Positions 1 to 18,376 of a DNA stretch of 34,434 nt are shown here, one piece after another. Under the pieces are notes generated by a model that had not been told where the DNA came from, searched no databases, and was given only the letters and a program-made list of their open reading frames with translations. How positions within the stretch are numbered: the first letter of the stretch is position 1; each line of letters opens with the position of its first letter. The DNA comes from Escherichia coli (lineage in GTDB: Bacteria; Pseudomonadota; Gammaproteobacteria; Enterobacterales; Enterobacteriaceae): assembly GCF_003334385.1 (NCBI RefSeq), contig NZ_QOWN01000046.1; one strand, 5' to 3'. The position numbers and the translations under genes were made by a program.

Positions 1-1060
1 GAGGAGTGGCAGATGGCCACGGGATAGGGCTTCCCACCGGGTAGGATTCAAAGCCAACCCACACACCGGATTGGCACGAAAGTATTGCCCCTTTACTGTC
101 GCGGCCTACAAGTCCGTCCGGTGAGCAGGAAGTACCTGCGGTGGCTGTTTTTTCCAGCTGTAAATACTCACCTGTGGAAAGACGACCGTCAGACCGGATC
201 GTTCCACCGCTGACTTTGCCCCCTTTGATTTCACCATCGGTGGTGATCCCTTTGTTATTGACGGCGCGTATCCACTGGCTGTCAGTCATGGTGAAACCGC
301 CTCCGTGCGTCGTGTTCATCCACCCCTTGTTGTTTCTGGTGATAAGCCAGCCGTCTTCGCTGGTTATATCGCCTTTCACCGTGGCTTTCTGACCATTGAG
401 GTTACCGGCGTTATTGATGTCATTTCCGCCCATGTTGATGGCGGTGTGCATCTGGTTCAGCTCTGGTCTCCCCGGGACCTGAAAACGATACAACCTGTCG
501 CTTTCCTGCAGATCATCACCCGTCATGACGACGGCAATGTGACCTGCCGAACAGGTGAGTCCGTAATCCCCCGGTTTGTCTGTCCAGGCGCCGAATGCGC
601 CGGTTGCTGTTCCGTTTTTACCAATATAACCACCCAGCCCGGGAAGCTGTCCTGCCACACTGCGCAGACCATCTTCTTTGATATTCTGCCCCCCTGTTGA
701 GCAGGTCAGGGCTTCAAGACGTCCTGTAGTCTGGTTACGGCGGATACCCGTGATATAACTCTGCCCAAACGGAGAACGATTAAATCCCTGTTTCAGGTAT
801 CCCTTGCGAATCAAATCATCGGCTGTAAAGTTTGCCGGAAGGCTGCCGTTGTGCAGAGTGGCATTGTTATCGGCAATGTAATTTCTGGCTGCGGTATTGT
901 AGGCATCTGCATGAGAAGCAGCACTCTGGTAAAGCTGTTCATTCAGCCAGTTTTCTATTTCGGAATAAATCAGCGGCGTGGCGATACCAATCACTATCAG
1001 TCCCGCCAGTATTTCAAGCAGAATAAAACCTTTGTCGTCATCGTGTCTGAACTTTTTCAC
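1..1060 (-). CDS. pilV: PilV, type IV pilus minor pilin/adhesin; partial, C-terminal shufflon-variable end runs off the left edge
   Basis: Minus-strand frame open from the window edge to a GTG at about 1060 preceded by GGAGAT; N-terminus KKFRHDDDKG/FILLEILAGLIVIG is a prepilin-like leader plus hydrophobic helix; GTG overlaps the pilU stop (GTGA). Four listed plus-strand ORFs here are antisense to it. Confidence 0.75.
   Translation of the reverse strand, partial: MKKFRHDDDKGFILLEILAGLIVIGIATPLIYSEIENWLNEQLYQSAASHADAYNTAARNYIADNNATLHNGSLPANFTADDLIRKGYLKQGFNRSPFGQSYITGIRRNQTTGRLEALTCSTGGQNIKEDGLRSVAGQLPGLGGYIGKNGTATGAFGAWTDKPGDYGLTCSAGHIAVVMTGDDLQESDRLYRFQVPGRPELNQMHTAINMGGNDINNAGNLNGQKATVKGDITSEDGWLITRNNKGWMNTTHGGGFTMTDSQWIRAVNNKGITTDGEIKGGKVSGGTIRSDGRLSTGEYLQLEKTATAGTSCSPDGLVGRDSKGAILSCQSGVWVGFESYPVGSPIPWPSATP
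59..77 (-). repeat. Shufflon 19-bp recombination site (Rci target-like) inside the pilV 3' region
   Basis: Minus strand reads GTGCCAATCCGGTGTGTGG, matching my recollection of the R64 shufflon repeat consensus GTGCCAATCCGGTNNGTGG; it sits where the constant part of pilV would meet the variable segment. Confidence 0.6.
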
Positions 1061-1764
1061 GTGAATATCTCCGAAGTGCGGAAAACGGAATCAGGGAGGA
1101 GGGTTAGTGCATACAGTGATGCGCAGAGAAACGGGGCGAACGGCAGTGCCTGCTGACGTCTGCGACGGCAGAAGAGGAGGATAAACAGAAATGCCCCGGA
1201 AGCTGCGGCGGTGATTAGCAGCGGCGTGTGTTGTGGCTGTGTCCACATTGCAATTCCTGCTATCAGGAATACATCACCAAGGCCGAGTGCTTCTGTTCCT
1301 TTTGCCGTTATGAAAAACTGCCGTAGCAGGTATGTCATGCCGAACCAGAGTGATGCGTTGAGGAGGCTGTATGTGAGCTCCTCCAGGCTGTACCTGAACG
1401 CTGCCCCCAGAACAATCAGTGAAAGCGTGAATATCCGGGGAAGCCGACAGACGGCGATGTCCGTCAGCGTCATTACAGTTAATAATCCCGTCAGAATGGA
1501 AAGGAATAACAGCCCCGTGGCTTCAACACCATATGCGCCGTTGAGGCTGACACTCACTATGGCCAGAAGGCAACACACGTACACCACCGGCCTGGGCGGC
1601 CGGGTGTCGTGTACTGCTGACAGGTAGAGAGCGGCGGTGCTGTATGCAAGATAAAGAATAACCGCCAGGATGATGATTATTATTGTCATGCTCAGTAATG
1701 CGCTCACCGTCACCTCGTATTTATTAATATTGTCTGAAATACCGGTTGTGGATTTTTCGGGCAT
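1057..1764 (-). CDS. pilU: Prepilin peptidase PilU (start may be an internal Met near 1689)
   Basis: 235-aa polytopic membrane protein in the prepilin-peptidase position of the operon; overlaps pilT and pilV. Confidence 0.75.
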   Translation of the reverse strand: MPEKSTTGISDNINKYEVTVSALLSMTIIIIILAVILYLAYSTAALYLSAVHDTRPPRPVVYVCCLLAIVSVSLNGAYGVEATGLLFLSILTGLLTVMTLTDIAVCRLPRIFTLSLIVLGAAFRYSLEELTYSLLNASLWFGMTYLLRQFFITAKGTEALGLGDVFLIAGIAMWTQPQHTPLLITAAASGAFLFILLFCRRRRQQALPFAPFLCASLYALTLLPDSVFRTSEIFT

Positions 1765-2206
1765 ATATCATGCGCCGGGCTGTGTTATTTTTGCTGAAAC
1801 CGGCGTTATAGCTGCCCAGACATTCCCAGTTAACGCCGCAGCGTTGAAAATGGCGGGCCAGTATCCAGGCCCCGGTCTGAATATTCAGGCAGGGATTATT
1901 AAGCAGGTCATTTTTGTCTTTAATGACTCCAAGCTTTTTCAGCTCAGGAATATGCACTGAATTAATCTGCATAATCCCGTAATCCGTACTGATGATTTTT
2001 CCGGATTTGTTTTTATTGTGATTTATCGCAGTGGCGACCAGACTGCTTTCCTGCTGTGCAATGGTTTTAAGAAGATCAGGCGCAATCTGGTAGCGTTTTC
2101 CGGCCTGAATAAAGCAACTGTCCAGTAATGTGTTTGTGGCGACAGCCTCAGCGGGAAGGGCGAAAAATAACGGACAAATCACGGCAGAAAAAAATAACCA
2201 CTTCAT
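1724..2206 (-). CDS. pilT: PilT-like lytic transglycosylase (SLT domain)
   Basis: 160 aa with signal peptide (MKWLFFSAVICPLFFALPAEA); size and operon position match the R64-type thin-pilus PilT as I recall it. Confidence 0.7.
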   Translation of the reverse strand: MKWLFFSAVICPLFFALPAEAVATNTLLDSCFIQAGKRYQIAPDLLKTIAQQESSLVATAINHNKNKSGKIISTDYGIMQINSVHIPELKKLGVIKDKNDLLNNPCLNIQTGAWILARHFQRCGVNWECLGSYNAGFSKNNTARRMIYARKIHNRYFRQY

Positions 2207-2253
2207 GCGGATACACTCCGGAAAAGCGCCCCGGAGGGCGCTGTGTCAGGATA

Positions 2254-2790
2254 TTAACTGCTGGTTTCGAGCGTGATATCGTTTGTGGCGGCAGAGCATA
2301 CAGTTACCGGATCCACACTGGCAGGTGTCTGGCCTTTGATTTTTGTGAACATGGATGAACTGCGCAGACTGTTAATCAGCTCAACACAGTTTTCTTTCGG
2401 TACGGCTTTACTGGTTATGGTATAACCGTATTTATTACTTGTTGCTGCAATGGTGACATCGCCTCCCCATGCATTTTTGGCCTTGTTACTTCCGGCGATC
2501 ATATCAGCCGGCAGGGAACCGCTTTCTGTCAGGGTTTTGATATAATCTGTGCCGGTATATCTGCCCTGGAACTTGTACTGCTTCATTTTTGTTGCAATAG
2601 TCTGCAGGTTTTTCAGTTCACGCTGGTTATCACTGGATGACATTGTGCTGGACATCTGACTCATTGCGAGAGCTACCACAATACCGATGATAATCAGTGC
2701 ACCGGCAATTTCCAGTAATGTTAAACCTTTATCCTCCTCTTTCTCTTTTTTTAAAGCAAAATAAGAATAAAGACATGATCTGAAGTTCAT
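2254..2790 (-). CDS. pilS: Type IVb prepilin (major pilin) PilS
   Basis: 178 aa; charged leader followed by KG/LTLLEIAGALIIIGIVVALA, a type IV prepilin cleavage motif and hydrophobic N-terminal helix. Confidence 0.8.
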   Translation of the reverse strand: MNFRSCLYSYFALKKEKEEDKGLTLLEIAGALIIIGIVVALAMSQMSSTMSSSDNQRELKNLQTIATKMKQYKFQGRYTGTDYIKTLTESGSLPADMIAGSNKAKNAWGGDVTIAATSNKYGYTITSKAVPKENCVELINSLRSSSMFTKIKGQTPASVDPVTVCSAATNDITLETSS

Positions 2791-2837
2791 ATATCACTCC
2801 TAGTGTTATGGGGATCAGAAATATTCTGTATGCGGGA

Positions 2838-4004
2838 TTATTGTTTCAGCATGTCGCTGATACTGTAGATGGCAGATATCATGTTAAGAATAAAAAAGAA
2901 GACAAAACCTCCTGATATACCGGTAATAATTAATCCAATTCGTTTTACCCGTTTTTTTGCTTCCTCCAGCCACTGATCGGCATAGAGTGCCATGGTTGCC
3001 ACACTGTCCTCCCTTTCGGAGTTCAGGAGCAGTTTATTGATGCATATTCTGGACGGAAAATCATAACCGGAATTTCGCATTGCTGTGGCCAGATTCTGAC
3101 CGGATAATACATGTTTTCGTATTGCCTGAATTCTCTCCTTTAACCATTTATTCTTTTCTGCACCTTTTTCCATTCGGAGCAGCGCCTGCGAAAGAGGAAT
3201 ATTAATCTGCAGCATGGATGAAATACTGAACAGATAATTCACCCCGTGTAAGGTCTGATACAGTGACCAGGGGGGAGCCTTGTCCAGCATCCTCCGGCCG
3301 GGGCCGGTATACCGGCTGAATGAAAAACGGATCAGAAGCGTCAGGGCGAAAATGGTCCCACAGAGCCAGAATCCGTACCCGATGAAAAATTCCGACATGC
3401 CGGCAAGCAATTTCATCTGGAATGACCATTTATCTTCTGAAGCAAACGCACTGACGATGGGGATGATACGGGTATGGGCGTTGTACATATTCACCACACA
3501 GAGCGAAAGCAGCAGAAGGGGGTAGAGGCAGACGGCAATGAGGCTGGATGTCATTTCCCGCCGGGCTTTAACGGTTCTGGCCACCTGGAAAAGGGCGTCG
3601 GCAATATTTCCGCGCTCTTCCCCGTTTCTGATTAACGTGGCTTCCTCCGGTGGCACCCAGGTTAACAGGGCACCGGATAACATGCCGCTGGCTTTGATGG
3701 AATCGATGCATTCTTTTGCCAGAAAATACATGCCGGATGTGCCTTTCTTTTCACCAAAATCGGTTTCGATCTCGCAGAGAAATTCGAGTGCACGCAGGGA
3801 CGGCGTTCCGTCACGTATCATGCCGCCCAGGGCTTCGTAGAACTCCACCCGGTTCAGGGCAAAGGTTTTTCTGGCTATCCAGACAGTCAGTGCTGTCAGC
3901 TCAATGTCGGTGTTGTTGAGTTTTTCCAGAAATCTCATGTCAGTGCAGCAGCGTATAGCTGTCCTCGTCGATGGGAGAGATGTAATGGGCCGCCAGCGGA
4001 TCAA
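2838..4004 (-). CDS. pilR: PilR, GspF/PilC-family inner-membrane platform protein (probable true start about 3938, just after the pilQ stop)
   Basis: Polytopic membrane protein following the ATPase gene; the internal Met (MRFLEK...) gives about 366 aa and abuts the pilQ stop. Confidence 0.75.
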   Translation of the reverse strand: MIRWRPITSLPSTRTAIRCCTDMRFLEKLNNTDIELTALTVWIARKTFALNRVEFYEALGGMIRDGTPSLRALEFLCEIETDFGEKKGTSGMYFLAKECIDSIKASGMLSGALLTWVPPEEATLIRNGEERGNIADALFQVARTVKARREMTSSLIAVCLYPLLLLSLCVVNMYNAHTRIIPIVSAFASEDKWSFQMKLLAGMSEFFIGYGFWLCGTIFALTLLIRFSFSRYTGPGRRMLDKAPPWSLYQTLHGVNYLFSISSMLQINIPLSQALLRMEKGAEKNKWLKERIQAIRKHVLSGQNLATAMRNSGYDFPSRICINKLLLNSEREDSVATMALYADQWLEEAKKRVKRIGLIITGISGGFVFFFILNMISAIYSISDMLKQ

Positions 4005-5448
4005 CCTGTCCGCTGTTGATTTTTCCCAGCAGATGCTGATTTCGTGTCATGCCGCCCAGCTCCCGGTGCCAGTATGTTCTGGCCTCAATACGCCCCTTTT
4101 CCCGGTACAACTGGAAAAAACGGGCATCCGGGGAGATGACTTCTGCGATCACCGTTCGTCCTGTCACGCCACGCCAGCAGTGCGGGCAGCCTTCATGATT
4201 TCGCAGATATACCTGGTCCGGGTTGCAGACGCTTTCCACCAGGCGCCGTTCATCATCCGTGCGCTCGGTCGCCACCTCATGCCAGGGGCGACGGCAGTGC
4301 GGACATATCAGCTGAACCAGACGCTGGCTCAGCAGGCCAATGAACAGTTGCGGGTCGGCAATCATCCTGGCCTGCACCCCCTCCATCTCAAGACGTTCGA
4401 GGATGTTAATCGGGTCGTTCGCATGGATGGTGGTCAGCATCAGATGGCCGGTCATGGCGGCTTTTATTGCCGTAATGGCGGAATCGTGGTCGCGGATTTC
4501 ACCGTTCAGGATCCCGTCGGGGTCAAGACGCAGTGCCGATTTGATGGAGTCCACCCAGCCCTGCGCGGTATCCATGACGGCGGTCTGAATGGCACCGGGA
4601 ATACGCCCTTCCGGCGGGGATTCGATGGTGAACAGCCTGCGACGGGGAAGAAGAATACCGCCGGTGTTGTTGAAGCCGTACTGTTCAAGGTACGCCGCAG
4701 AGGCGGTTCTCAGCGTGGTGGATTTTCCTGAGCCGGTGGGGCCTGAGAGCGTGATAATGCCTTCAGGGCGCTGCAGAATGCGGCGAAGAGTGCGCTCCTG
4801 GTCAGGGTGATAGCCCAGCATACTGAAGGTCGGGATTTGCTGACTGTCATCCTTGATCAGACGGAGCACAGCATAGAGGCCGCCCACACAGGGGTAGTGG
4901 GAGTAGCGTGCACCAAACAGACCGGCCAGTTTCAGATACTGCTCTGAAAGACGTGCATCCTGAGGCACCCCGGGATCAAACTGTGTGCCTTTGATAACAT
5001 CGGTCATGCCGGAATAGGTGGCCCCCAGTAATTCGAGGCCTTCTTCTTTCCGGAGGATATCGAGCACTTCCAGTTCGCCGTGAACCCGGGCTTCCACATA
5101 GGTGAAGTCCGTGTTGTCTCGTCCCGGGGTCATATGAAGGTCTGAGGCACCAAGAGAGGCAGAATGGCGGATATAGCCGAGCATTTTCTGCTGTACCGGG
5201 TTAATGACGCTTTCATCACCGGCGGTTGTGGTGTCCTGTCTGAGGCGGGCTATCACATCCAGGGTGGTGAACTCAAAGTCTCCCACACGCCCCTGATGAC
5301 GTGCGCGCAGGCGGGTCAGATATTCCTGGACGGCACGCAGATGTTTTTTTCCCTCCACGACCCTGACCCGCAGATGACCGGTTTTATCTGTGTCGATAGC
5401 CACATAATCCAGAATGTCATCCGGTGGCAGGTCTGCAGACTCCAACAT
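3940..5448 (-). CDS. pilQ: PilQ, type IV pilus/type II secretion-family assembly ATPase
   Basis: 502 aa with Walker A GPTGSGKST and a C-terminal tetracysteine motif (CPHC...CPHC) typical of GspE/PilB ATPases. Confidence 0.9.
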   Translation of the reverse strand: MLESADLPPDDILDYVAIDTDKTGHLRVRVVEGKKHLRAVQEYLTRLRARHQGRVGDFEFTTLDVIARLRQDTTTAGDESVINPVQQKMLGYIRHSASLGASDLHMTPGRDNTDFTYVEARVHGELEVLDILRKEEGLELLGATYSGMTDVIKGTQFDPGVPQDARLSEQYLKLAGLFGARYSHYPCVGGLYAVLRLIKDDSQQIPTFSMLGYHPDQERTLRRILQRPEGIITLSGPTGSGKSTTLRTASAAYLEQYGFNNTGGILLPRRRLFTIESPPEGRIPGAIQTAVMDTAQGWVDSIKSALRLDPDGILNGEIRDHDSAITAIKAAMTGHLMLTTIHANDPINILERLEMEGVQARMIADPQLFIGLLSQRLVQLICPHCRRPWHEVATERTDDERRLVESVCNPDQVYLRNHEGCPHCWRGVTGRTVIAEVISPDARFFQLYREKGRIEARTYWHRELGGMTRNQHLLGKINSGQVDPLAAHYISPIDEDSYTLLH

Positions 5449-5544
5449 AAGGCCTCCTTACGGGCAGCGGTGCCCGGAAAATATGTTTTCTGTTATTAAG
5501 CGAGGGAAATAATCAGTTCTTCTGCGGAGAGAATCTGGACATTT

Positions 5545-6141
5545 TCAGCACAGGCTTAACAGTGTAAAAATGATTACGCCTCCAAAGGCGAATAACAGGG
5601 GAATGTTTTTCTCCGGCTGTGTTGATCTCAGCGTTAATACCGGTGTGGCGAGAGCGTAAAAAATAATACCTGCGGTATAAATAAAATAAGGTGTGATGCC
5701 GGACAGATTACATATACTGGCGAATATCATAAGAATGACGGCAACTACCGATAAAATAATGGAAGTATTCTTCCATTCACCAGATGGTGTAAGTGAAATG
5801 ATATCGCCATCCTGTTTATAGTTCGTGTTCAGCTTCAGGAAATGACGGATATCTTTCAGCGTGTTCAGTTTCTGCTGGATCTCTTCCACAAGTTCCTGTC
5901 TGTCGGTTTTTTCACGGAGCAGCTGGAATTTTGTCTCCCTCAGTACAGATATAATACGGTCCACCTGGCCGGGGGAGGGATAGTAATGATGTTCGAGCAT
6001 CCACCGGACATCGGCGATTAACCGGTCAGTTACCGGTGTATTACCGTTGTTAATGAGAGGTGTTTCGTGCATCCACTGAAATATGCGGTAGATATGTTGC
6101 TTAACAAAAATAAAATCATCGGTGGTTTTATTCTCCAGCAT
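5545..6141 (-). CDS. Hypothetical membrane protein (soluble N-terminal domain plus C-terminal transmembrane helices) embedded in the pil operon
   Basis: 198-aa ORF between pilP and pilQ; noticeably more AT-rich than the flanking pil genes; no family recognised. Confidence 0.5.
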   Translation of the reverse strand: MLENKTTDDFIFVKQHIYRIFQWMHETPLINNGNTPVTDRLIADVRWMLEHHYYPSPGQVDRIISVLRETKFQLLREKTDRQELVEEIQQKLNTLKDIRHFLKLNTNYKQDGDIISLTPSGEWKNTSIILSVVAVILMIFASICNLSGITPYFIYTAGIIFYALATPVLTLRSTQPEKNIPLLFAFGGVIIFTLLSLC

Positions 6142-6236
6142 GAGATATATCCCGTCGAGTGTTAATAATAAAACGTCCCGGGTGTGAGGTGATTTGTGAT
6201 GTATTGTACGGAATATTATTTCTGCACTGTAATCGC

Positions 6237-6791
6237 TTACGCAGGTGATATATCACACCAGAGGAAATACAGCGGAATGAAGCTGTAGAGTGACCAGAAA
6301 AGCCCGACGGGATCTTTTGCCCACAGGCATAAGAATGTCAGTCCGGTGCACCATGCGCCGGCAAGTGCCGCGCATAATTCAGCGCCTCCGGAATTGCCGC
6401 TCTTCATCATATAACAGAGCACGATCAGCAGTGGGATAATGAAGACGAGCGGCAGGACAAAGGATTCGGCTGCGGATATCCATTCCCGGTAACGCCAGCG
6501 GTCGTTTAATCTGTCGGCATCATATTTCAGACAGTTGCTCAGGAACGCCAGATCGTTCATGAGGGGGGCGTCCTGGCCATACTGCGCCGCGAGGCGCATT
6601 CTGGCACCCCACAACCGGGCACTCAGGGCACGGAGTTGTGCCGGGGTGACCTGTTTTCCCCGACAAAGTTGTTCCTGTAATTGTGTTGCCTCGTGGACAA
6701 TATCTGTGTGGTTCACCCCGTATTCTGCAGCGGCTGTTTCCAGGTCACGGATGATCAGGCTGAGCCAGGATATCAGTTCACTGATGTTCAT
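6237..6791 (-). CDS. Hypothetical membrane protein embedded in the pil operon
   Basis: 184-aa ORF with the same architecture as its neighbour (soluble N-terminus, hydrophobic C-terminal segments); no family recognised. Confidence 0.5.
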   Translation of the reverse strand: MNISELISWLSLIIRDLETAAAEYGVNHTDIVHEATQLQEQLCRGKQVTPAQLRALSARLWGARMRLAAQYGQDAPLMNDLAFLSNCLKYDADRLNDRWRYREWISAAESFVLPLVFIIPLLIVLCYMMKSGNSGGAELCAALAGAWCTGLTFLCLWAKDPVGLFWSLYSFIPLYFLWCDISPA

Positions 6792-6839
6792 TGTCGTTCA
6801 TCCTTTTGCACGGACAGCCGCCTGTACTGGCGGCCGGTT

Positions 6840-7292
6840 TCATGGTCGCAGGGTTTTTCTGATGCCGGACTGCTCCAGTACCACACTGTCCGGTGTGATT
6901 TTCTCCACGAGATAAGGGGTTCCGGGGATGTTCTGGCCCGTCTTCACATCGGTGATGTGTCCACCCGAAAGTTCTATCCGGGCGCTCAGCTGAGGCTGTA
7001 CACCAAATATTTCTGTCAGACGGGGGGATGCCGCCGTCGACGGGGCAGTCGGGATGGCGGACGTGCTTTCCTGCGGACGACCGGGCTCTGCGGGAATACC
7101 CTGCTCCAGCATGCGCAGCTCATGACGGATTTTCTCTCTCGCCAGCATGGCTTCATACAGGGCTGTTTCGTCCTGTATCCGCTCAATCTGCAGTTGCCGG
7201 GGACTCTGTTCCTCTGCGTTTCCGGTTGTGGCCATTGCCGTTGCCGGTAACAGCAGCGCTGAAACCAGAAGGGCTTTTGTTTTAGCGTGCAT
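6840..7292 (-). CDS. pilP: PilP-like periplasmic pilus biogenesis protein
   Basis: 150 aa with signal peptide (MHAKTKALLVSALLLPATAMA); operon position and size match R64 PilP as I recall it. Confidence 0.65.
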   Translation of the reverse strand: MHAKTKALLVSALLLPATAMATTGNAEEQSPRQLQIERIQDETALYEAMLAREKIRHELRMLEQGIPAEPGRPQESTSAIPTAPSTAASPRLTEIFGVQPQLSARIELSGGHITDVKTGQNIPGTPYLVEKITPDSVVLEQSGIRKTLRP

Positions 7293-8577
7293 AATATTTA
7301 CCTGTAAATTGATAGTGGAAACGACCGTTCTCCAGTTGTCGTGTGACAGAGATAAAACGGACAGAAGGCGCCTTCAGACGTTCAACCAGCTGGTATGCCG
7401 GGAGTAGCGTCTGTATCTGAAGGTCATACTCTTTCCACGGAGGCTGGATAATATTTCCGTTTTCATCGGTGACACTGTTACTGACCTCCTGCCAGTCCAG
7501 CGTCAGTGGCATTGACTGAGCAAGCGTGGTCAGTTGTTCCTGCAGGACAGAGCTTTCCGGCAGAGCATCAACGTCGACGGGATGTTCAGGCAGGCGGAAG
7601 CTGACTGGCAGGCCAATGCCGCCGGTCTTTCCTTCCGGCATCACAATAAAGGGGCGGGTGCCCGTCATATCACTGATGCGCCGGATGAAGTCAGTCACTG
7701 TCGCGCCAGCTGTATTAGTGTACGAGGCGCGAAGATTGCCGCTGCCGCCGTCAGTTGAACATTCAGCCAGCGAATAACGCCATCCGGCGGCAGACAGTGG
7801 CAGTGACGTCCATATGTCAGCACATCCCTGGATAAATGCGTCGGTTTCGGGGAGTCCGGGCCAGGGGGGACTGATTTGTTCCTCTGTGACCTGTCGGGCA
7901 GCTGCTGCCTGCGCGGCTTGTTCAGTCTTCCACCGTTCATAATACTGCCAGCCGTACCATGCAGCGCCGAGAAGGGCGATGATCAGCGAGACAGTGATGA
8001 ACTGCGCTCCCCGGGATACCGGATTCAGGCGCGCGGCAGCCGGATGTTTACCAGAGCCGGTCAGGGTGGACAGCGGCAGGGCCTGATTCTGATCGCCTGC
8101 TGAAAATGCCACCGGTTCATAGCGTGTCCAGCCCTGCTCCGGTTCGGTGTTGATGGAAAGAAAGGTATCCCGGGCTTCACGGACCTCTTCTCCGCTTCCC
8201 ACTAGGTCACTGACGAGAACACCGTCGACAGCGGAAACAAAGCTGTAGCGCGGTGTTTCTCCGGGTAACGTCAGTTCCGTGATGGCATAGCCGCCCTGTT
8301 CAAGCAGTGGCAGGATCAGCAGGGCGAGGGAGAGGTACTGACGGGGTTTTCCGGGCAGTATGCGGCGACTGGCTGTGGCCACCATGGTGTGGGTGTTGGC
8401 ATCTTCATTACTGAGATACTGACAGGCCAGGAAAAGGTCGGCTTTCTGTGCCCGGGCAAAGTCGCGGGCATGCCGGTACTGTGAGGGCAGTGTTTTCCAT
8501 TCCAGACCGGCCAGAAACACATTGCGCCCTGCCGTCAGCGGAAACATCTGCCGCTCTGTCGGTGAAATATCCGTCAC
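7282..8577 (-). CDS. pilO: PilO-like pilus biogenesis protein
   Basis: 431 aa with a central transmembrane segment; position between pilN and pilP; size matches R64 PilO as recalled. Confidence 0.7.
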   Translation of the reverse strand: MTDISPTERQMFPLTAGRNVFLAGLEWKTLPSQYRHARDFARAQKADLFLACQYLSNEDANTHTMVATASRRILPGKPRQYLSLALLILPLLEQGGYAITELTLPGETPRYSFVSAVDGVLVSDLVGSGEEVREARDTFLSINTEPEQGWTRYEPVAFSAGDQNQALPLSTLTGSGKHPAAARLNPVSRGAQFITVSLIIALLGAAWYGWQYYERWKTEQAAQAAAARQVTEEQISPPWPGLPETDAFIQGCADIWTSLPLSAAGWRYSLAECSTDGGSGNLRASYTNTAGATVTDFIRRISDMTGTRPFIVMPEGKTGGIGLPVSFRLPEHPVDVDALPESSVLQEQLTTLAQSMPLTLDWQEVSNSVTDENGNIIQPPWKEYDLQIQTLLPAYQLVERLKAPSVRFISVTRQLENGRFHYQFTGKYYAR

Positions 8578-8597: not shown

Positions 8598-10219
8598 TCA
8601 GATGATATTGGGCGTGATCAGCACCACGAGAATGGTGTCGTCGTTTTCACTGTTGATCCCACCGCCAAGACCGAAGAATCCCGGCGTGCCTACACCCTGT
8701 TTTCCGCTGCGACGTCCTGACTGCTGGAAGCCACTGATAATGACCGTCTGCCCGGATTTCAGATCCACGGTCTGATTGATGGTTTTCAGATCCACATTCG
8801 GCAGCTGGGCTTTACTTCCACCGCTCTCATAATTCTCAATAACCGGTTTGTCGGAGAGACTCATGGAATAGAGCAACTGCAGTGTCTGTGAGTCCGGGAG
8901 AATGAACGGCAGAAGGGTCATGTTAAAACCGGTGGTGATGGTGGCCGCATTCAGGGAGGTGGATGAGCCGACATTGGCAGTGGTATCCGTCGTCACACTC
9001 TCTATGTAACTCTGCTGATTGGCGATCTGCATTGGCACCGGCGTCAGGTTTTTGGTGACGGCAGAGTTCTGGGTCACCACACTGACATCCCCCTGGGAAG
9101 ACAATGCTTTCAGGAAGGCTTTTGAACCGGTGAGTTTACCGTCCACAATGGAAACACCACCTGTGATGGCATCACTGGCTGCACTGGTGAATGTGCTGCC
9201 GAGACTCAGTCCCAGCGTTCTGTCGCTGAAGACTGCGTTCCAGTCGATACCGGCCTGCTCATTGCGGGTTTTCCGGATACTCAGAATTTCCACATTCAGC
9301 ACCACCTGACGTTTCATCTCTTCATTGCGTTTTTCAATGAATGCCCGGACCGTTTCCAGAACCTGTGGATTATCTGTGACGGTGATAAAGCCCGTGGACA
9401 TGAACATGCGTCCGATACCCGGGGTCAGCATTGATGTGACCGCATTTTTCACATCCTGATACAGCGCAGACTTCATATCCACTGTGGTGGTCTGGGTATT
9501 GCTGGCATCACCGGAAATGGCATCTGATGCACTGCCTCCTGATGAGCCGTTTGAGGACATGGTGCCGCTGACCACAGTAGCGTTATAGGCCACCTGACTG
9601 TCCATATAGGTGATGGGGAAGGTCTGTGTCTCGAGATAATAGAAGATGATATGCGAGCCGTCATAGCGCCAGGATATACCGAGACGGGAGGAGACCGCAT
9701 TCAGCAGGGTCGTCAGGCCGGAGGCATTCAGTTCAGACAGTGCTGCGGTATTTCCCGGCAGACGGGATGGTGGCGTGTCAGATGCGCCAATGGCGGCAAG
9801 GGGAACCATGCCGCTCGCATCCGGTGGGGGGGTAACGCGCCCTGGATTTGTTGTGTGCTGCCGGTTGTGGATGTATTCAGGTATGCCAGTACATCAGGTG
9901 TGATCCGTACCGGAATATGGCAGCTTTCCGTGATCCGCTGAACCACCTGCTGAAGGGTGATGCTCTGACGGGTATGAATGACAATGGGACAACCGGGAAC
10001 GGTTTTGCCGGTGTTTTTATCCATGACCGGACGGGGATTGATCCATTGTCGTGAGGATTCCTTAACAACCGGCGTCCGGGTTCGCAGATCAGACATCATT
10101 TCCCGTGCCCGTTGTTGTTCCGCAACGGCTTCCTTTCTTGTGCTCTCAAGCTGTCTGTAACTGGCACAGCCCTGTAACAGAGCGGCGGCAATCATAATGG
10201 CAAGAATTTTTTTATTCAT
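8598..10219 (-). pseudogene. pilN: PilN secretin lipoprotein, reading frame interrupted (or sequencing error) at a G7/C7 homopolymer
   Basis: The N-terminal ORF (9728-10219) has a lipoprotein signal (LLQGC) and the C-terminal ORF (8598-9809) is secretin-like; they overlap in different frames. One extra C in the C7 run at about 9826-9832 would fuse them into a roughly 540-aa protein. Confidence 0.7.
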
Positions 10220-10249: not shown

Positions 10250-10687
10250 CTAATTCATCCAGAGGATGACGTGATCGGGGATCACTGACGGAAGTGTGAT
10301 GGAAAGCGCTCTGCCGGCAGTGTCCAGCAGTCGGCCGTTTTCCACCCTGCCGAGCAGAGCAGAGTCATTACACTGTTCCCTGAGCGCGGCCATCAGGCCC
10401 GGGGTTTCTGTAGCCCAGACAAAAACACGTTGCTGGCTGATGATATGACTGACGGTATCCGTCCCGGGAATCCCGAGCTGAGTGGATGTCAGCCGCCCTC
10501 CGGCTGTCCGTCGTTCCGGATGCTGATGCAGGTAATCATTGATGGCGTTCATATAACGAATGAACGTTGCTGCCTGTTGTGTATTTTCTGCGGCCTGATG
10601 ACGGTGTTCGCTGCGGGAGAGCTGACTGGTGAACCAGAAATTGCCTGTGGTCGTGATGACCATGATGAACACGATGAACCAGCCCAT
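10250..10687 (-). CDS. pilM: PilM-like pilus biogenesis protein
   Basis: 145 aa with an N-terminal transmembrane helix; position between pilL and pilN. Confidence 0.65.
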   Translation of the reverse strand: MGWFIVFIMVITTTGNFWFTSQLSRSEHRHQAAENTQQAATFIRYMNAINDYLHQHPERRTAGGRLTSTQLGIPGTDTVSHIISQQRVFVWATETPGLMAALREQCNDSALLGRVENGRLLDTAGRALSITLPSVIPDHVILWMN

Positions 10688-10691
10688 AAGG

Positions 10692-11762
10692 TTATTCCTG
10701 TGGACGATCTGTCACCCGCAGCAGACATTGTGCTGTGCTGGTCCGGGCATACAGCGGTTTTTCCACCGGGGTGTAGAGTGCGAAGAGCTGTTCCAGCGCC
10801 TGGCGGAAACTGCCGGTGAAAACCAGAGGGGCATCGATGCTGTAGTTGACAGGTGTTTCCCAGCGTAGCGTCCAGGTGCCGTGGGGGCATTTTTCGGATG
10901 ATGTCCAGCGGGCCAGTCCGTCTTTCAGGGTGGTCCCCTTTTCCATTTTCCACTGCCGTGGCGGTATGACCTTCTGCGGTGGTGGCACTACCGGTTTCGT
11001 GGCCACCGGGGCTGGCGTGGTTGTTCTGCTCTCTGGTGTTCCGGATGTCCCGGTGGTGGTCTGAGCCCGGGAAACGCTGACGGCAGGTGTCACTGGTGTC
11101 GGGCCTGCCGGCGTTGCGGTGCTGCCCCTGAACGGATTACGCGGTGTATCAGCAGCTTTCTGTGAACCCTGCGGTGCCGTGACGTCGACCGGCGGTGTTG
11201 CAGAGGTCGTGACAGTCAGTATTTTCCTGTTCCAGTCCATATGTCCGTAAAGCTGCTGGCCGGCCAGCAGCGCATTCAGTGCCCGGTGCCACTGGTCATT
11301 AACGGACCAGACGGGGAGGCGTTTGTTCAGTGCCGGTATGGCAGCGTTCTGTTGCCGGAACTGCCAGCCGGGTGGCAGCAACGGGCGTATCCAGTCACTG
11401 ACGGAGCGCTGACGTGCCTCACGTAAATAAACGACGGATGACTGACCGGGTTTACCGGTCATAACCAGTGCGGGCAGCTGTGTGGCCTGAAGGAGCGGGC
11501 GGGGAGGCAGTGCGGTACTCTGGCTGCTGACTGCGGTTGTGGGCGTCGCTGTTGTTGTCGGGCGGGGCGGCGTCACAGGGCGGGTCACCGGTGGCGGAAG
11601 CAGACGTTTTTGCGTATGGGCGATAATGGCAGCGCTTTCGCGAATTTGTCCGTCGACGAACACCAGAGCCGGAGGCGTGGTGTCAGGAACAGGCGTGGCA
11701 TTAAAGGCCGTACAGCCGCTGAGTAATGACGGCAGAAGGAGTGTAAGTGATTTCTTTTTCAT
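10692..11762 (-). CDS. pilL: PilL lipoprotein, first gene of the pil operon in this window
   Basis: 356 aa; lipoprotein signal LLPSLLSGCTAF followed by a Pro/Thr-rich linker. Confidence 0.7.
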   Translation of the reverse strand: MKKKSLTLLLPSLLSGCTAFNATPVPDTTPPALVFVDGQIRESAAIIAHTQKRLLPPPVTRPVTPPRPTTTATPTTAVSSQSTALPPRPLLQATQLPALVMTGKPGQSSVVYLREARQRSVSDWIRPLLPPGWQFRQQNAAIPALNKRLPVWSVNDQWHRALNALLAGQQLYGHMDWNRKILTVTTSATPPVDVTAPQGSQKAADTPRNPFRGSTATPAGPTPVTPAVSVSRAQTTTGTSGTPESRTTTPAPVATKPVVPPPQKVIPPRQWKMEKGTTLKDGLARWTSSEKCPHGTWTLRWETPVNYSIDAPLVFTGSFRQALEQLFALYTPVEKPLYARTSTAQCLLRVTDRPQE

Positions 11763-11863
11763 AGAATAAATCCGGTATGTATCGGGTTACGGTATAAGAC
11801 AGGTGGCTGGTAACAGGTCTTCAGATAAATATAATATCATCAGGATATTGATGATGAACATTC

Positions 11864-12304
11864 ATGTTCGGGGTGATTATGAAAACTAAAACATTCCGGT
11901 TCCGGAAATATAAAAAGAAAAACGTTCTGCTGCAAATAATAGTTTCCAGGAAACAAGTGATATTGTTACGCAATATTATGACGGACTCTTTATTGTTTTG
12001 CTCGATAGGTTTTGTGTTTATGAATATGTGTGATTCAAAATATACGTTGATTTCTGGTGAGGGTGGTTTACGTGCTGATTGTGCCGATTATTTATTCTTT
12101 GCCGTATATGCAATTGCGTTGCTAATGATAATTTTATGGATGACAGCTTCAGTTATTTATTCTATTGAAGAATATACGAGTCAGGAAAAATACGGTAAAA
12201 GTAAAGTCTATAGCTACTTCTGGTTTTTTATCTGGTTTTTTGTTTTTAACTGTGCTGTTTATTCTTCTCTGAAGGCAATAAATATAAAAGATATAATCAG
12301 CTAA
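11864..12304 (+). CDS. Hypothetical small membrane protein (AT-rich islet)
   Basis: 146-aa ORF with hydrophobic segments in a low-GC region; convergent with the next ORF. Confidence 0.35.
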   Translation: MFGVIMKTKTFRFRKYKKKNVLLQIIVSRKQVILLRNIMTDSLLFCSIGFVFMNMCDSKYTLISGEGGLRADCADYLFFAVYAIALLMIILWMTASVIYSIEEYTSQEKYGKSKVYSYFWFFIWFFVFNCAVYSSLKAINIKDIIS

Positions 12305-13699: not shown

Positions 13700-15394
13700 T
13701 TAAACCTGTTGTGGTTCTGAGTTATCCGGAGCGGTTACCGGTTCGCTGACATCCGGAACCTTTTCCGGGGCAGGCATGACCAGTGGACGTGTCAGGGCTG
13801 TAAGTCCTTCACCGGATAAACCCACCTCTTTCAGCAGGGAGTCGATGAGCGGAGCCTGTGTACGGTAAGCCAGAGCGGCGGTTACTGCCTGTTCAGCGAG
13901 ATTTCCGCCACTTATGTCGGTTGTTGCTGTTTTACCGCGGGTAACACCGCCATTCAGACCATCCACCTGAATGATTTTAATACCGTCAATGGATTTCATT
14001 GGTTCTGTGGACTTCTCTATGACGGCAGGTAATGCATCCAGCAGGGCAAGACGGAAGCGGAGGCTGGTCTGCTCATCCGAAAGCACGTTAATGGCATCGT
14101 TCAGTGCGCGCTGTGCTTCTGCTTCTGCCAGACCTTTCTGACGGGTGGCCTCCGCCAGTTCAATAATTGCTGCTGCCTGGAGTTCGGCTGCTTCTTTTTC
14201 AGCCTGTGCGCAAACCGTCAGTTCAACCGCTTTCGTTTCAGCTTCCTGAGCAGCAGCAATCAGGGCAACCTGTTTGGTACGGTCGGCCTCCGCAGTCTGG
14301 CGGGTGGTTTCCACATCCTGCTGGGCCTGTACGGCCTCAGCCAGTGCTTTACTTGCCCGGGCTTCTGCCTGTGACTGCTCTTCCGATTTTGCCGCCACGG
14401 CAATGGCTCTGGCCTGGCTGGCGATTTCGGTTGCCTGCTGTTGCTCAATTTCCCGTATGGCCACTTCCCGTTCGGCTTCGACCTGGCGGGTACGCACTAT
14501 CTGCTGTCGTTCGATTTCGGCTTCCTCTATCTTACGTTCAGCCAGAATTCGCGCGGATTCTGCTTCACGACGTCGTTCAGCTTCAATAGCAGCAATACTG
14601 GCACTCTGCTCTGCCGTACGGGTTTTTACCCGTTGTTGTTGCTCCAGAGTCATGAAGGCTTCCTGCTGTTCAATCTCCAGACGTCGGGAGAGTGCATCCC
14701 GGTTTTTTTCCCTGATGGCCACTTCAACATCCTGCTCAACTTCGTTGCGTTCGCGGCGACGACGTTCTGTTTCCTGGGTCAGAAGGGTCAGGCCTTCAGC
14801 ATCAAAGGCATTGTCAGGATTAAAATGTACCCGTGCAGTCTGGTTGAAACTTGTCAGCGACACACTTTCAAGCTCCAGACCGTTTTTGGATAAGTCTTCC
14901 GCAACGGTGTTCTGCACACCCTGAACAAAGTTCTCGCGGGCATCCTGTAAATCCTGCATGCTCATTCTGGCCGCCGTGGCCCGTAGGGCATCAACAAATT
15001 TATCCTCGACCAGACTACGCAGATCTTCAGGTGTGAGCGTGCGTTGTCCCAGCGTCTGGGCTGCAGTGGATATTCCTTCGGCTGATGGTTTTACCCGAAG
15101 AAAAAAGGCAACGGCAACATCAACACGCATGCGGTCGCGGGTTATGAGACTTTCAGCCGCTGCACGACTGACTTCCAGCTTCAGGGTGTTCATGTTGACG
15201 GGAATTGTTTCGTGAAAAATAGGCATAACAATTGCACCGCCACTCATTACCACTTTTTGGCCTCCCAGACCTGTGCGGACAAAGGCCTGCTCTGCCGATG
15301 CCCGGCGGTACAGGCGGGCAAATATCAGCCCGATAACGAACAGGGTGAGGACCAGCGCTATAACGGTAAACAACCATCCCGGAAGATTAAACAT
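13700..15394 (-). CDS. yqiK: Flotillin-like SPFH/band-7 inner-membrane protein (YqiK-like)
   Basis: 564 aa; N-terminal transmembrane helix, SPFH-like domain, long Ala/Glu/Gln/Arg-rich coiled-coil region; matches E. coli YqiK (about 553 aa) in architecture. Confidence 0.8.
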   Translation of the reverse strand: MFNLPGWLFTVIALVLTLFVIGLIFARLYRRASAEQAFVRTGLGGQKVVMSGGAIVMPIFHETIPVNMNTLKLEVSRAAAESLITRDRMRVDVAVAFFLRVKPSAEGISTAAQTLGQRTLTPEDLRSLVEDKFVDALRATAARMSMQDLQDARENFVQGVQNTVAEDLSKNGLELESVSLTSFNQTARVHFNPDNAFDAEGLTLLTQETERRRRERNEVEQDVEVAIREKNRDALSRRLEIEQQEAFMTLEQQQRVKTRTAEQSASIAAIEAERRREAESARILAERKIEEAEIERQQIVRTRQVEAEREVAIREIEQQQATEIASQARAIAVAAKSEEQSQAEARASKALAEAVQAQQDVETTRQTAEADRTKQVALIAAAQEAETKAVELTVCAQAEKEAAELQAAAIIELAEATRQKGLAEAEAQRALNDAINVLSDEQTSLRFRLALLDALPAVIEKSTEPMKSIDGIKIIQVDGLNGGVTRGKTATTDISGGNLAEQAVTAALAYRTQAPLIDSLLKEVGLSGEGLTALTRPLVMPAPEKVPDVSEPVTAPDNSEPQQV

Positions 15395-15420
15395 AGTGAG
15401 AACCTCTGTATATGTCGGGA

Positions 15421-16041
15421 TTAAAGAACATCCGGCCAGGGATTCAGTTCGCCCAGCCAGCAGGAACCGGAAAGACGGCAGACAATAATCACTTTGTCTC
15501 CTCGTCTGAATTCTTTCCCGGCCTCCGGCTCCAGCAACAGGTAATGAACCTGCCCGAAGCGGTCTGTGAAGCGACCTTCACAGGGGGAACCCGCCACTGC
15601 GTGATAACCGGTGATGGTGGCCATACAGCCGATGAATGCCTCCTCGGTGAGCGCCGTTGTTTCATCACGGGGTAACCAGGGGGCAATCAGTCTGCCGGTG
15701 CGGTGTACGAGAGGACATGTCAGCAGCAGGCAAAGTGGTGTAAGGAGAATGTTCGGGGCAGGAGCCTGCAGCAGATGAATAATAAGACCCTGCAGGAGAA
15801 TGCCGGATATACCAAAAAAACCTGCCAGCATACAGAGGACGATCAGCAGGGGGATCCGTCCGATGTTCAGCCAGTCCAGCGCCTCTCCTGTCAGACCCTC
15901 CGGTAAATCAGGTGTATCCATAGCTGAAGAGAGGGAGTGTCCGCAGAGCAGGGCGATAAGTTCAGCGATACCAGTAAGCAGAACAAAAGTCAGGGCTGCC
16001 AGATAGGGTGCGTTATACGCGGTAAGTAACGTCAGTGTCAT
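15421..16041 (-). CDS. yqiJ: NfeD-like inner-membrane protein (YqiJ-like), partner of the flotillin
   Basis: 206-aa membrane protein directly upstream of the yqiK-like gene with a 27-bp gap; size matches YqiJ (about 209 aa). Confidence 0.7.
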   Translation of the reverse strand: MTLTLLTAYNAPYLAALTFVLLTGIAELIALLCGHSLSSAMDTPDLPEGLTGEALDWLNIGRIPLLIVLCMLAGFFGISGILLQGLIIHLLQAPAPNILLTPLCLLLTCPLVHRTGRLIAPWLPRDETTALTEEAFIGCMATITGYHAVAGSPCEGRFTDRFGQVHYLLLEPEAGKEFRRGDKVIIVCRLSGSCWLGELNPWPDVL

Positions 16042-16307: not shown

Positions 16308-17093
16308 TCAGTGTAAAAGCAGACTGTTGTCCATGCCCCATTCCTCTTCCGCTAAACCTGAATGGCCCACATGAAGAATGCGTGACAGCATATTTCTGCC
16401 GCTGCCGTTCAGACTGCATTCGCGCCCGTGTGCGAGCATAAAACCTTCATCCCGGAATATCTCTTCAACCTCAGACGTGTTGATGGTGGCCGGATGGATT
16501 AATGAAAATGCCACCGGTCTGATCATTCTGCCCGTGGTGGAAAAGGTGTCCCCGGTGCTGTTCAGCTGCAGGATATGACGTTTCCCGGTCTGTGCGCGGG
16601 AAAGTGTCTCACTCAGTAACTGGTCATTCCATGCGCACGTGCCAATCTGCCATCCCAGACTCCTGCACGTGGCAAGCGCTGCTCGGAAGCGGTACAGGTC
16701 ATACAGTGCAGCGTTGTGGCCACTTTCCAGCAGTGATTTCAGCGTGTTCTCTACCGGTATGTCCGTATTGGTGGCCAGCAGTTTGCGCAGGGCGGTGAAC
16801 TCTTCAGGCATCCCCCTGAACTCACTCATCTGTCGGGCGGAATCAAGCCAGTTCAGCAGGAAGCGCCGGCGACGTCGTTCATTGTTGATGCTGTCCGGGG
16901 AGGTGGAGAGCGCTTCAAGCATATTCTCCAGTAACTGAATGACAGGGTTTTCCGGGGATTGAATGGTCATAACGATGTCCTGAAAAAAAATGCCCGGCAG
17001 CCGCTCTCCGTACACGCAGGTGTCACCGTTGCTGGGCATTGGGGAAAAGATGGGGAAAAAAAGCCCGGCCATAAAGGCCGGGAAAGTCGTCAA
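16308..17093 (-). CDS. Hypothetical protein (probable start at the internal ATG about 16970, MTIQSPENP..., with an AGGA 7 nt upstream)
   Basis: Open frame between the NusG-like gene and yqiJ; no family recognised. Confidence 0.5.
   Translation of the reverse strand: MTTFPAFMAGLFFPIFSPMPSNGDTCVYGERLPGIFFQDIVMTIQSPENPVIQLLENMLEALSTSPDSINNERRRRRFLLNWLDSARQMSEFRGMPEEFTALRKLLATNTDIPVENTLKSLLESGHNAALYDLYRFRAALATCRSLGWQIGTCAWNDQLLSETLSRAQTGKRHILQLNSTGDTFSTTGRMIRPVAFSLIHPATINTSEVEEIFRDEGFMLAHGRECSLNGSGRNMLSRILHVGHSGLAEEEWGMDNSLLLH
17056..17082 (-). terminator. Candidate rho-independent terminator after the NusG-like gene
   Basis: GC stem CCCGGCC / GGCCGGG with a 5-nt loop, followed on the minus strand by a run of 7 T (plus-strand A run at about 17056-17062). 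Confidence 0.45.
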
Positions 17094-17109
17094 ATGAAGA
17101 CAGCAATTT

Positions 17110-17751
17110 TCATGTCAACGCTCCGTCATCAGATACCAGGTGCAGGAGCAGGGCGATCCTCGACTCCGGCAGAGGCTGGGCATCAAGCCGGAGGAGGTAC
17201 TGGTAACGCGCTTTTGTCAGCCAGAGGGTGGAGGCAGCATCCAGCTCCTCCCTGGCTGCCGGATTGAGCGCAGGATCCGGGTACACTTTCATCAAAGACT
17301 GAACGATATCCTCCCTGACGGTTTTGATTTCACCGGCCATTTTCACGAAGTCCAGAAAGGCACTGTGACGGCGAAGGTGAGTGAAGCTGTGGCTTTCGGG
17401 GTCTGCTTTCAGGAAAAAGTAACCGGGAAACACGGCGTGTATATGTCGACGGTAACCACAGACTTTATCCGTGCGGCGGACCTTTTTCAGTATCAGGGGT
17501 GTCCAGGGAAGGACGTGTTGTTCGGAAAGCCAGGAAAAGAGATGTTCGCGGTTTTTGCCGGCAGGGATGTACTGTGCCAGATACCAGTTGCGTTGATGTA
17601 ATTCACTGATATTCAAAATCCGGAACGCTCCGCGAAAATCGATCCCCGCAGGGGGGCTTCGATGTTGTTGTGAACGGCGAATACATAAAGCATGTGTCGG
17701 AAACAGCGGCTGACCCACGTTCAGCCTGGCCTGCAGTTCTGACAGGCACAT
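17110..17751 (-). CDS. NusG/RfaH-family (NGN domain) transcription antitermination-like protein; start uncertain, probably downstream of the listed Met
   Basis: The segment NWYLAQYIPAGKNREHLF...LFPGYFFLK resembles the RfaH/NusG N-terminal domain (WY...LFPNY.F). IncI1 plasmids are recalled to carry a NusG-like transfer activator. Confidence 0.6.
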   Translation of the reverse strand: MCLSELQARLNVGQPLFPTHALCIRRSQQHRSPPAGIDFRGAFRILNISELHQRNWYLAQYIPAGKNREHLFSWLSEQHVLPWTPLILKKVRRTDKVCGYRRHIHAVFPGYFFLKADPESHSFTHLRRHSAFLDFVKMAGEIKTVREDIVQSLMKVYPDPALNPAAREELDAASTLWLTKARYQYLLRLDAQPLPESRIALLLHLVSDDGALT

Positions 17752-18296
17752 GATTTACGCACTCTTGTAAGCCTTGTGGACGGTTTCGAGGCGGGCAAAA
17801 ACCGACAACTCCTGCAAACAGGATTAATGGCTGGAAAATATATTACATAAGGATGTATCTGTGGCAAGAGTGAAGATAAGCAGTTGAATAGATCGTTATA
17901 TTTGATAAGACAGCATATTATTCTATATCTGATGTTGTGTGCGGGATATTAGATCGTTTAAAAAAATTCGGCGATCTCTTCTACTGGAAAAGAAGAAAAA
18001 AGCAGCATAAAAGATCGTTTGTGAAATTGTTCATTTTTTTGACACAGTTCAAAAAAACGACGCTTTTTAGGGGGTTAAAGAGGGCAACTGTAACCCTGAG
18101 AAATCGTGTCGGCTTTTCAAAGCGGTGGAAAAGGGGTATATTGCGGATCGTTATTCAGTGGCTTTTGGGATCCTCGCGATCCGGAAAGTCAGAAAACGGC
18201 AGGATGCGCCATAAGGCATTCAGGATGTATGGCAGAAACGACGGCTGTTTGCCGGGGCCGGAAGGCTGAAAAAAGTTTCAGAAGACCATAAAGGAA

Positions 18297-18352
18297 AACC
18301 CCCATAATCTTCTTATCGAACTTGGCGGAACGTAGAGAAGATTATGGGGGCC
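18297..18352 (-). ncRNA. inc: Inc RNA/RNAI-type antisense RNA region (stem-loop I) of the replication control system; exact transcript ends not determined
   Basis: Long perfect stem (ACCCCCATAATCTTCT / AGAAGATTATGGGGG) whose loop contains TTGGCG, the hexanucleotide recalled for IncI-alpha/IncB antisense-target kissing loops; about 25 nt upstream of the leader peptide gene. Confidence 0.5.
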
Positions 18353-18376
18353 TCACAGAATACGGGGTAAGTATAT

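Follow-up and report, generated by a model that had tools for sequence, protein, structure and literature searches.

A shufflon recombination site and the start of a phage tail-collar-type tip in pilV of an Escherichia coli I-complex plasmid

The stretch of Escherichia coli DNA analyzed here (the window; 34,434 nucleotides of contig NZ_QOWN01000046.1, assembly GCF_003334385.1) opens within a pilV gene. It raises the question of whether the pilV C terminus at the left edge is one of several interchangeable tips of a shufflon, and whether that shufflon can still switch. The first part can be addressed by comparison with related plasmid, genome, and metagenome loci (numbered L001 to L019 where they need to be told apart). 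The second concerns the rci recombinase gene and any second sfx site, which would lie beyond the left edge and are read from relatives only.

An sfx site in frame within pilV

The minus strand of the window is open from a GTG codon at position 1060 to base 2, a run of 353 codons with no stop, and pilV leaves via the left edge. The GTG corresponds to the start that RefSeq assigns to pilV in relatives, overlaps the pilU stop, and opens the N terminus VKKFRHDDDKG and then FILLEIL, read directly from the sequence as a type IV prepilin leader and cleavage motif. A pattern search of the whole window locates an exact 19-bp sfx site, GTGCCAATCCGGTGTGTGG, at 59 to 77 on the minus strand, with 0 mismatches to the consensus pattern GTGCCAATCCGGTNNGTGG, of which 17 bases are specified. 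This Rci recombination site consists of the 12-bp arm GTGCCAATCCGG and the 7-bp core TGTGTGG, and is identical to repeat-g of IncK2 plasmid shufflons (Seiffert et al. 2017, PMC5350095). It spans the third base of codon 328 together with codons 329 to 334, reading S-C-Q-S-G-V-W, with C-Q-S-G-V-W encoded in the pilV frame by codons 329 to 334; as full-length pilV has 457 codons in relatives, the site lies about 72% along the gene. The constant region, codons 1 to 328 (78 to 1060, minus strand), is defined by its translation, by the Pfam domain Shufflon_N (PF04917), and by RefSeq pilV annotations in records that are 99.8 to 99.9% identical; in the full-length relative L001 (CP053733), the Shufflon_N match covers residues 37 to 332 and ends at the sfx-encoded peptide. 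The preliminary description had placed an sfx site about 60 bp from the left edge in the 3' part of pilV, and these coordinates bear it out.

It could be argued that the 19-mer is a chance match or that the open reading frame is not pilV, and a second sfx-like 19-mer at 21493 to 21511 does illustrate that weak matches can arise by chance. We judge that look-alike to be itself a chance occurrence, with 3 mismatches that all fall in the conserved arm and a location within an open reading frame for a DEDDh 3'-5' exonuclease (20820 to 21668), and there are no other matches to the pattern in the whole window at up to 3 mismatches, against a chance expectation in shuffled sequence of 0.06 matches per window with 3 mismatches allowed. 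Against this reading, the site at 59 to 77 matches all 17 specified bases exactly and lies in frame at the end of the Shufflon_N domain, the open reading frame is 99.9% identical to annotated pilV genes, and homology with isomers (see below) breaks exactly at sfx. These observations refute it, and we give it almost no weight. Window positions 1 to 1060 are thus the first 353 codons of pilV, and the gene belongs to an I-complex conjugative plasmid, in whose type IVb thin pilus PilV is the minor pilin and tip adhesin.

The site and its setting closely resemble the shufflon of the IncI1 plasmid R64. The 12-bp sfx arm is identical, the core has the same T...TGG frame, sfx likewise encodes C-Q-S-G-x-W where the Shufflon_N constant region ends, and the gene order pilV-pilU-pilT-pilS-pilR-pilQ is shared. 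In relatives of the window, rci lies downstream of pilV as it does in R64, and L001 Rci, aligned along its full length, shares 75% identity with R64 Rci. There are also clear differences, in that the R64 repeats seen in NC_005014 have the core triplets ACG, ACC, ACT, and CGG and lack GTG (repeat-g), and R64 has four segments compared to one, two, or none in close relatives of the window. IncI1 plasmids have only 60 to 80% pilV DNA identity to the window. A closer likeness is to the IncK2 blaCMY-2 plasmids (pDV45, pTMSA1088, and pNVI1292; PMC5350095), which carry the identical repeat-g, and window bases 1 to 77 are 100% identical to KR905384, KR905386, KR905389, KR905390, and KU312044. Among IncK2 plasmids, the number of sfx sites ranges from two to eight and varies between otherwise identical plasmids (PMC5350095). 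The IncK2/Z plasmids L002 and L004 carry this same cassette and differ in the pilV constant region, which is ∼97.5% identical to that of the window, compared to 99.8 to 99.9% for the group containing CP053733 and CP145695. The window shufflon is accordingly a member of the known R64-type family, within an IncK2/Z-like branch that has already been described.

A mobile cassette with a tail-collar-type tip

Bases 1 to 58 of the window (minus strand) are the start of the variable C-terminal cassette fused to pilV, encode codons 335 to 353 (VGFESYPVGSPIPWPSATP), and are identical at 57 of 58 positions to L001, L002, and L004. In the IncK2/Z plasmids L002 and L004, this sequence adjoins an internal sfx site rather than pilV, and pilV carries a different tip. 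Across L002, L004, and L014 to L019, bases 1 to 58 lie beside other sfx sites or are inverted, with homology breaking exactly at sfx, and several complete E. coli genomes match window 59 to 6000 at 98.7 to 99.8% identity with the match ending exactly at base 59. Plasmids listed with window bases 1 to 77 have that 77-mer on either strand, and by annotation it is part of pilV in some and unfused in others. We find the exact 57-mer of the window, which includes a C at position 38 that is absent from the closest relatives compared (L001, L009, and L010), in six metagenome contigs, and in all six the cassette is within a complete 747-bp segment between two sfx sites; none of the six is the origin of the window itself, and no match to the 57-mer is present in species-representative genomes. 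Together with these six contigs, 43 plasmid records, including the IncK2 blaCMY-2 plasmids, are 100% identical to window 1 to 77. Neither PLSDB plasmids nor complete E. coli genomes contain a full-length, 100%-identical match to the window.

Isomers are readily recognizable among the relatives. In CP129253 (L013), the single 617-bp segment found in CP053733 (L001) is present as the inverted isomer, matching at 92.5% as the reverse complement and at 25.8% directly, and the annotation of the collar tip there is an incomplete "phage tail protein." Metagenome contig L016 has the arrangement of the window itself followed by two segments and the start of rci, and in metagenome contig L018, a pilV that is 99.86% identical to window 59 to 1437 is joined to the opposite end of the same 747-bp segment. 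At least two inverted sfx sites flanking segments are present in L001, L002, L004, L008, L009, L012, and L013 to L019 and absent from L006, L007, and L011. In all ten shufflon-bearing loci that were translated, each sfx is followed by a tip open reading frame in the C-Q-S-G-x-W frame; the complete sfx-adjacent tips of shufflon-bearing relatives are 73 to 129 amino acids long, with shorter ones ending at contig ends. As judged from these alignments, bases 1 to 58 belong to a mobile shufflon cassette, and isomers with breakpoints at sfx can be recognized in L013 relative to L001 and in L018 and L014 relative to the window. With the cassette mobile and relatives carrying two to eight alternative tips, the earlier proposal that the pilV C terminus is one of several alternative tips is supported.

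The variable core bases of sfx in L001 to L019 mostly travel with the cassette, with GTG at the collar and A-like tips, GTC at the KNNISD tip, and ATC at the TTTKMNF tip. The GGNKVNY tip is preceded by TTTGTGG plus c when unfused and by TGTGTGG plus g when fused (L002 and L004), and these variants look like a hybrid core arising from recombination between unlike sfx sites.

In relatives, the fused tip extends 123 amino acids beyond sfx and is of the phage-tail-collar type; the window carries its first 19 codons, VGFESYPVGSPIPWPSATP. Pfam Collar (PF07484) matches residues 343 to 390 of full-length L001 PilV (E = 3.4e-12), the window itself spanning PilV residues 335 to 353 of the tip region, and we provisionally assign the collar domain to the window tip because 57 to 58 of its 58 nucleotides are identical to cassettes encoding PF07484. 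The full cassette of relatives matches the T4 long-tail-fiber protein gp37 (PDB 2xgf; E = 7.8e-16), a short tail fiber, and PHROG tail-fiber families with E values down to 2e-41. Two other, noncollar tips have no match in these PDB and PHROGs comparisons, there is no NCBIfam model match for PilV or the alternative tips, and none of the seven tips extracted from R64 (NC_005014) is a counterpart of the collar tip. By tblastn, 408 plasmid records carry the collar tip at 95% identity or more, and its identity to tail-fiber genes on other plasmids and phage-plasmids is 37 to 66%.

Related architectures have been noted elsewhere. A PilV-collar fusion under programmed inversion is reported at one chromosomal locus, CP084655.1, with the hypothesis that a phage domain has been repurposed for recipient specificity (Milman et al. 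2023, PMC9881135). That locus similarly has PF04917 followed by PF07484, lies beside pilus genes, and has variants generated by inversion; it differs in being chromosomal and in having been presented as previously undescribed, whereas the window fusion is on an I-complex plasmid, and the two are likened by domain architecture. Databases already annotate the collar tip type, the literature had taken note of it by 2023, and the system is already known. There is also a likeness to the Gin system of phage Mu, the Cin system of P1, and P1-like phage-plasmids, in which C-terminal receptor-binding modules are exchanged by DNA inversion, and the collar tip itself matches the T4 gp37 collar and is 37 to 46% identical to phage-plasmid tail-fiber genes. 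The Mu and P1 systems use serine invertases acting at gix and cix sites, not a tyrosine recombinase and sfx, and their acceptor protein is a tail fiber, whereas that of the window is a pilin.

Is the shufflon still active?

As in R64, the constant N-terminal part of PilV ends in the translated sfx, with everything downstream being cassette. Rci, a tyrosine recombinase that would be encoded beyond the left edge, would pair the sfx at 59 to 77 with an inverted sfx and invert the DNA between them, so that the tip encoded at the opposite end takes over, in frame, the place of the cassette end facing pilV. The tip fused in the window is assigned to the collar type, outside the R64 repertoire.

Whether this can occur in the window plasmid depends on what lies to the left, and close relatives are split. 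The rci gene lies 0.3 to 0.8 kb past the pilV stop in CP053733, CP132729, CP182309, CP061259, and CP129253; it is full length in CP053733, CP132729, CP182309, and CP129253, and a 195-bp pseudogene in CP145695 and CP196680. Next to rci there is one segment in CP053733 and CP132729 and two in CP182309 and CP061259, and as many as four segments, with eight tips, occur in some relatives and metagenome contigs. A contrasting class, examined in CP145695, CP136142, and CP196680, has a single sfx, a 113-bp A-like remnant of the partner tip, and a 195-bp rci fragment that RefSeq annotates as "integrase; incomplete," followed directly by traE; in NZ_CP145695.1 (L006/L010) this arrangement, with the collar tip on pilV, occupies 5215 to 5686, and it is also present in L007 and L011. 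The preliminary description had held that rci and further repeats should lie immediately to the left and had named their absence as the outcome that would count against it, and in NZ_CP145695.1, NZ_CP136142.1, and NZ_CP196680.1, a second sfx is indeed absent and rci is only a remnant. Its claim that rci lies to the left is unproven for the window and possibly wrong.

We favor the interpretation that rci and at least one further sfx are still present to the left of the window, constituting an active shufflon, with a probability of roughly two in three. The grounds are the position of the contig end, the several independent rci-positive lineages, and the C38 allele. The left end of the window is exactly 58 + 19 = 77 nt from the constant-side edge of sfx, and on the right the window stops at the final base of an exact inverted repeat of 171 nt (24783 to 24953 and 34264 to 34434) corresponding to an IS2 end, with IS2 terminal repeats at 24927 to 24952 (minus strand) and 34265 to 34290 (plus strand). 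Both ends look like branch vertices of a k=77 de Bruijn assembly, and the left one implies that the 77-mer of sfx plus cassette had two entries in the reads, with the collar joined to pilV and also elsewhere. Such a branch is compatible, for rci-proximal or "ggcca" spacer contexts, with the bases that precede sfx sites in relatives. This argument for isomers in the source reads is circumstantial and assumes that the window is a whole short-read contig, and hints at isomers accordingly; a second shufflon plasmid in the same strain would yield the same break at the left end. Breakage of short-read assemblies at shufflons is a recognized problem (Brouwer et al. 2015, cited in PMC5350095; PMC5430464), and it is the probable reason for the contig ending where it does.

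The competing interpretation, which we consider improbable but far from negligible, is that the shufflon is a frozen relic in which two deletions took the far-end sfx and the bulk of both rci and the partner tip, leaving the sfx at 59 to 77 as a fossil and the collar tip as a permanent C terminus with no switching. The frozen records NZ_CP145695.1 and NZ_CP136142.1 are colinear with window 1 to 7300, with no gaps and 5 and 6 mismatches, respectively, NZ_CP145691.1 and NZ_CP196680.1 are equally close over 1 to 6000, and the lineage of L006, L007, and L011 is marginally the closest over 1 to 7300. This arrangement always has the collar tip fused, as in the window, and five informative pilV sites (113, 214, 221, 777, and 914) side with it and not with the rci-positive CP132729. 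A total of 132 plasmid records share its deletion junction, their hosts being E. coli, Shigella, Salmonella, and Klebsiella, compared to at most 213 records with the collar tip at the pilV junction, these counts of fused and unfused records by BLAST coverage being approximate, with nearby pieces joined. Inactive shufflons are also reported in related plasmids (Cottell et al., PMC3377399), and those in the literature include pO113, pO26_vir, and pSERB1. The frozen plasmids p1-S1-KEN-03-A (NZ_CP145695.1), pJNQH940-1, and ∼130 others share with the window the pilV allele WP_042100569.1 and the collar tip at the same sfx, but lack both its private C at position 38 and its pilN frameshift. The C38 allele is instead found in cassettes of intact multisegment shufflons, and the single-copy junction of the frozen lineage offers no reason for a contig to end exactly 77 nt past the sfx edge. 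Moreover, the rci-positive CP053733 has 1 mismatch in window 1 to 1300, CP182309 and CP132729 (also rci positive) are as close as the frozen plasmids over 6 kb, and whereas there are several distinct rci-positive lineages, the frozen records come down to essentially a single plasmid lineage of ∼126 kb. Over 7.3 kb, the window has 5 mismatches to CP145695 and 7 to CP132729. A single-nucleotide polymorphism (SNP) phylogeny was rejected as a means of deciding between the two states, since the backbone is a mosaic of recombination tracts in which the window is about equidistant from CP145695 and CP132729, and no single relative therefore predicts the flank beyond the left edge. SNP clusters at 7747 to 7849, 10622 to 12005, 16317 to 17179, and 17834 to 18368 match CP145695, CP132729, or neither by turns.

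Insertion sequences are also found close to rci. In the 130-kb metagenome contig L017 (OAUP01000031.1, 12915 to 14282), an IS2 end identical to that of the window lies ∼90 bp beyond rci, and insertions beside rci may be one route to shufflon inactivation. The internal IS2 copy of the window encodes only TnpB residues 102 to 301.

The thin pilus, the plasmid, and recipient specificity

Beyond pilV come pilU, pilT, pilS, pilR, and pilQ with the remaining genes of the thin-pilus operon on the same strand, after which the window carries traC, traB, and an I-complex replicon. On the minus strand, pilU (1057 to 1764) is an intact open reading frame for an A24 prepilin peptidase that would process PilV and PilS, and its counterpart at this position in relatives bears the annotation "A24 family peptidase"; pilU is followed by genes for a PilT-like lytic transglycosylase (1724 to 2206), the PilS major type IV pilin (2254 to 2790), the PilR platform protein (2838 to 3938), and the PilQ ATPase (3940 to 5448), assigned from their open reading frames, from their place in the thin-pilus operon in the case of pilT, and from relatives for pilS, pilR, and pilQ. 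This linked type IVb operon (pilI to pilV) is present in the window with a frameshift in pilN (8598 to 10219, minus strand), the gene for a secretin-type outer membrane lipoprotein, where a run of seven G residues at 9826 to 9832, compared to five in four relatives, gives a +2 frameshift and a stop at codon 164 of 539. All of the other pil genes of the window (pilU, -T, -S, -R, -Q, -P, -O, -M, and -L) are intact. The G7 run could be a sequencing error or a tract prone to slippage, or the thin pilus could truly be inactivated. Yoshida et al. in 1999 reportedly counted pilN among the twelve genes that the R64 thin pilus needs. A real frameshift would mean that no thin pilus is made and that tip choice has no phenotype; conversely, for tip choice to matter in the window plasmid, the frameshift would have to be an error or reversible. 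Secretins are in general required for type IV pili in Gram-negative bacteria (PMC9045228).

The replicon is recognizable from a PK-repZ regulatory pseudoknot (Rfam RF01087; 168 bits) at 18291 to 18441, directly upstream of repA (18454 to 19326), which is as long as in relatives, and together these mark an I-complex replicon. The pil backbone is closest to plasmids typed as IncK2/Z, and the types assigned to those relatives whose pil region is closest vary between IncK2/Z and IncI-gamma/K1. Between pilI and traC (13700 to 16041), the window codes for a flotillin family protein (564 amino acids) and a DUF1449/OB-fold (NfeD-like) protein, as do its relatives, a pair that R64 lacks at the corresponding place. 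An accessory island at 26169 to 33902 lies between IS3 family transposase genes (26169 to 27185; 32769 to 33095 and 33213 to 33902) and codes for an ABC exporter ATPase resembling bacteriocin exporters (28529 to 29161), a weakly Lnt/nitrilase-like protein (27305 to 28372), and three open reading frames without an NCBIfam match (29154 to 32147). The arrangement of the island as a whole is not covered by any plasmid or E. coli genome record.

For R64 and TP114, and partly for pCT, it is established that the tip governs recipient specificity during liquid mating. The collar-type tip may influence recipient choice as well, and the preliminary description, which had the fused C terminus determine recipient specificity, is right only on condition that the thin pilus is intact; a literature search found no experimental work on the receptor of such a tip. 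One could go further and propose that the collar-type tip is a phage tail-fiber receptor-binding module captured as a shufflon cassette, lending the thin pilus a phage-like receptor specificity, and locked by rci deletion as advantageous in a widespread E. coli and Shigella plasmid lineage (∼130 records). We offer this tentatively and think it rather unlikely.

Which bacteria can be reached by an I-complex resistance or virulence plasmid, in liquid and in the gut, is set by its shufflon, and knowing both the fused tip and the remaining ability to switch predicts plasmid spread. We note that the very close relatives of the window include a lineage without a functional recombinase gene and that the secretin gene of the window is broken as sequenced. 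What is left is of modest interest, namely, a phage-derived tip and its fixation in a widespread rci-deleted lineage. If the captured-module proposal were true, plasmid recipient range and phage host range would share one receptor code, and a normally trimeric fiber domain would be working on a pilin.
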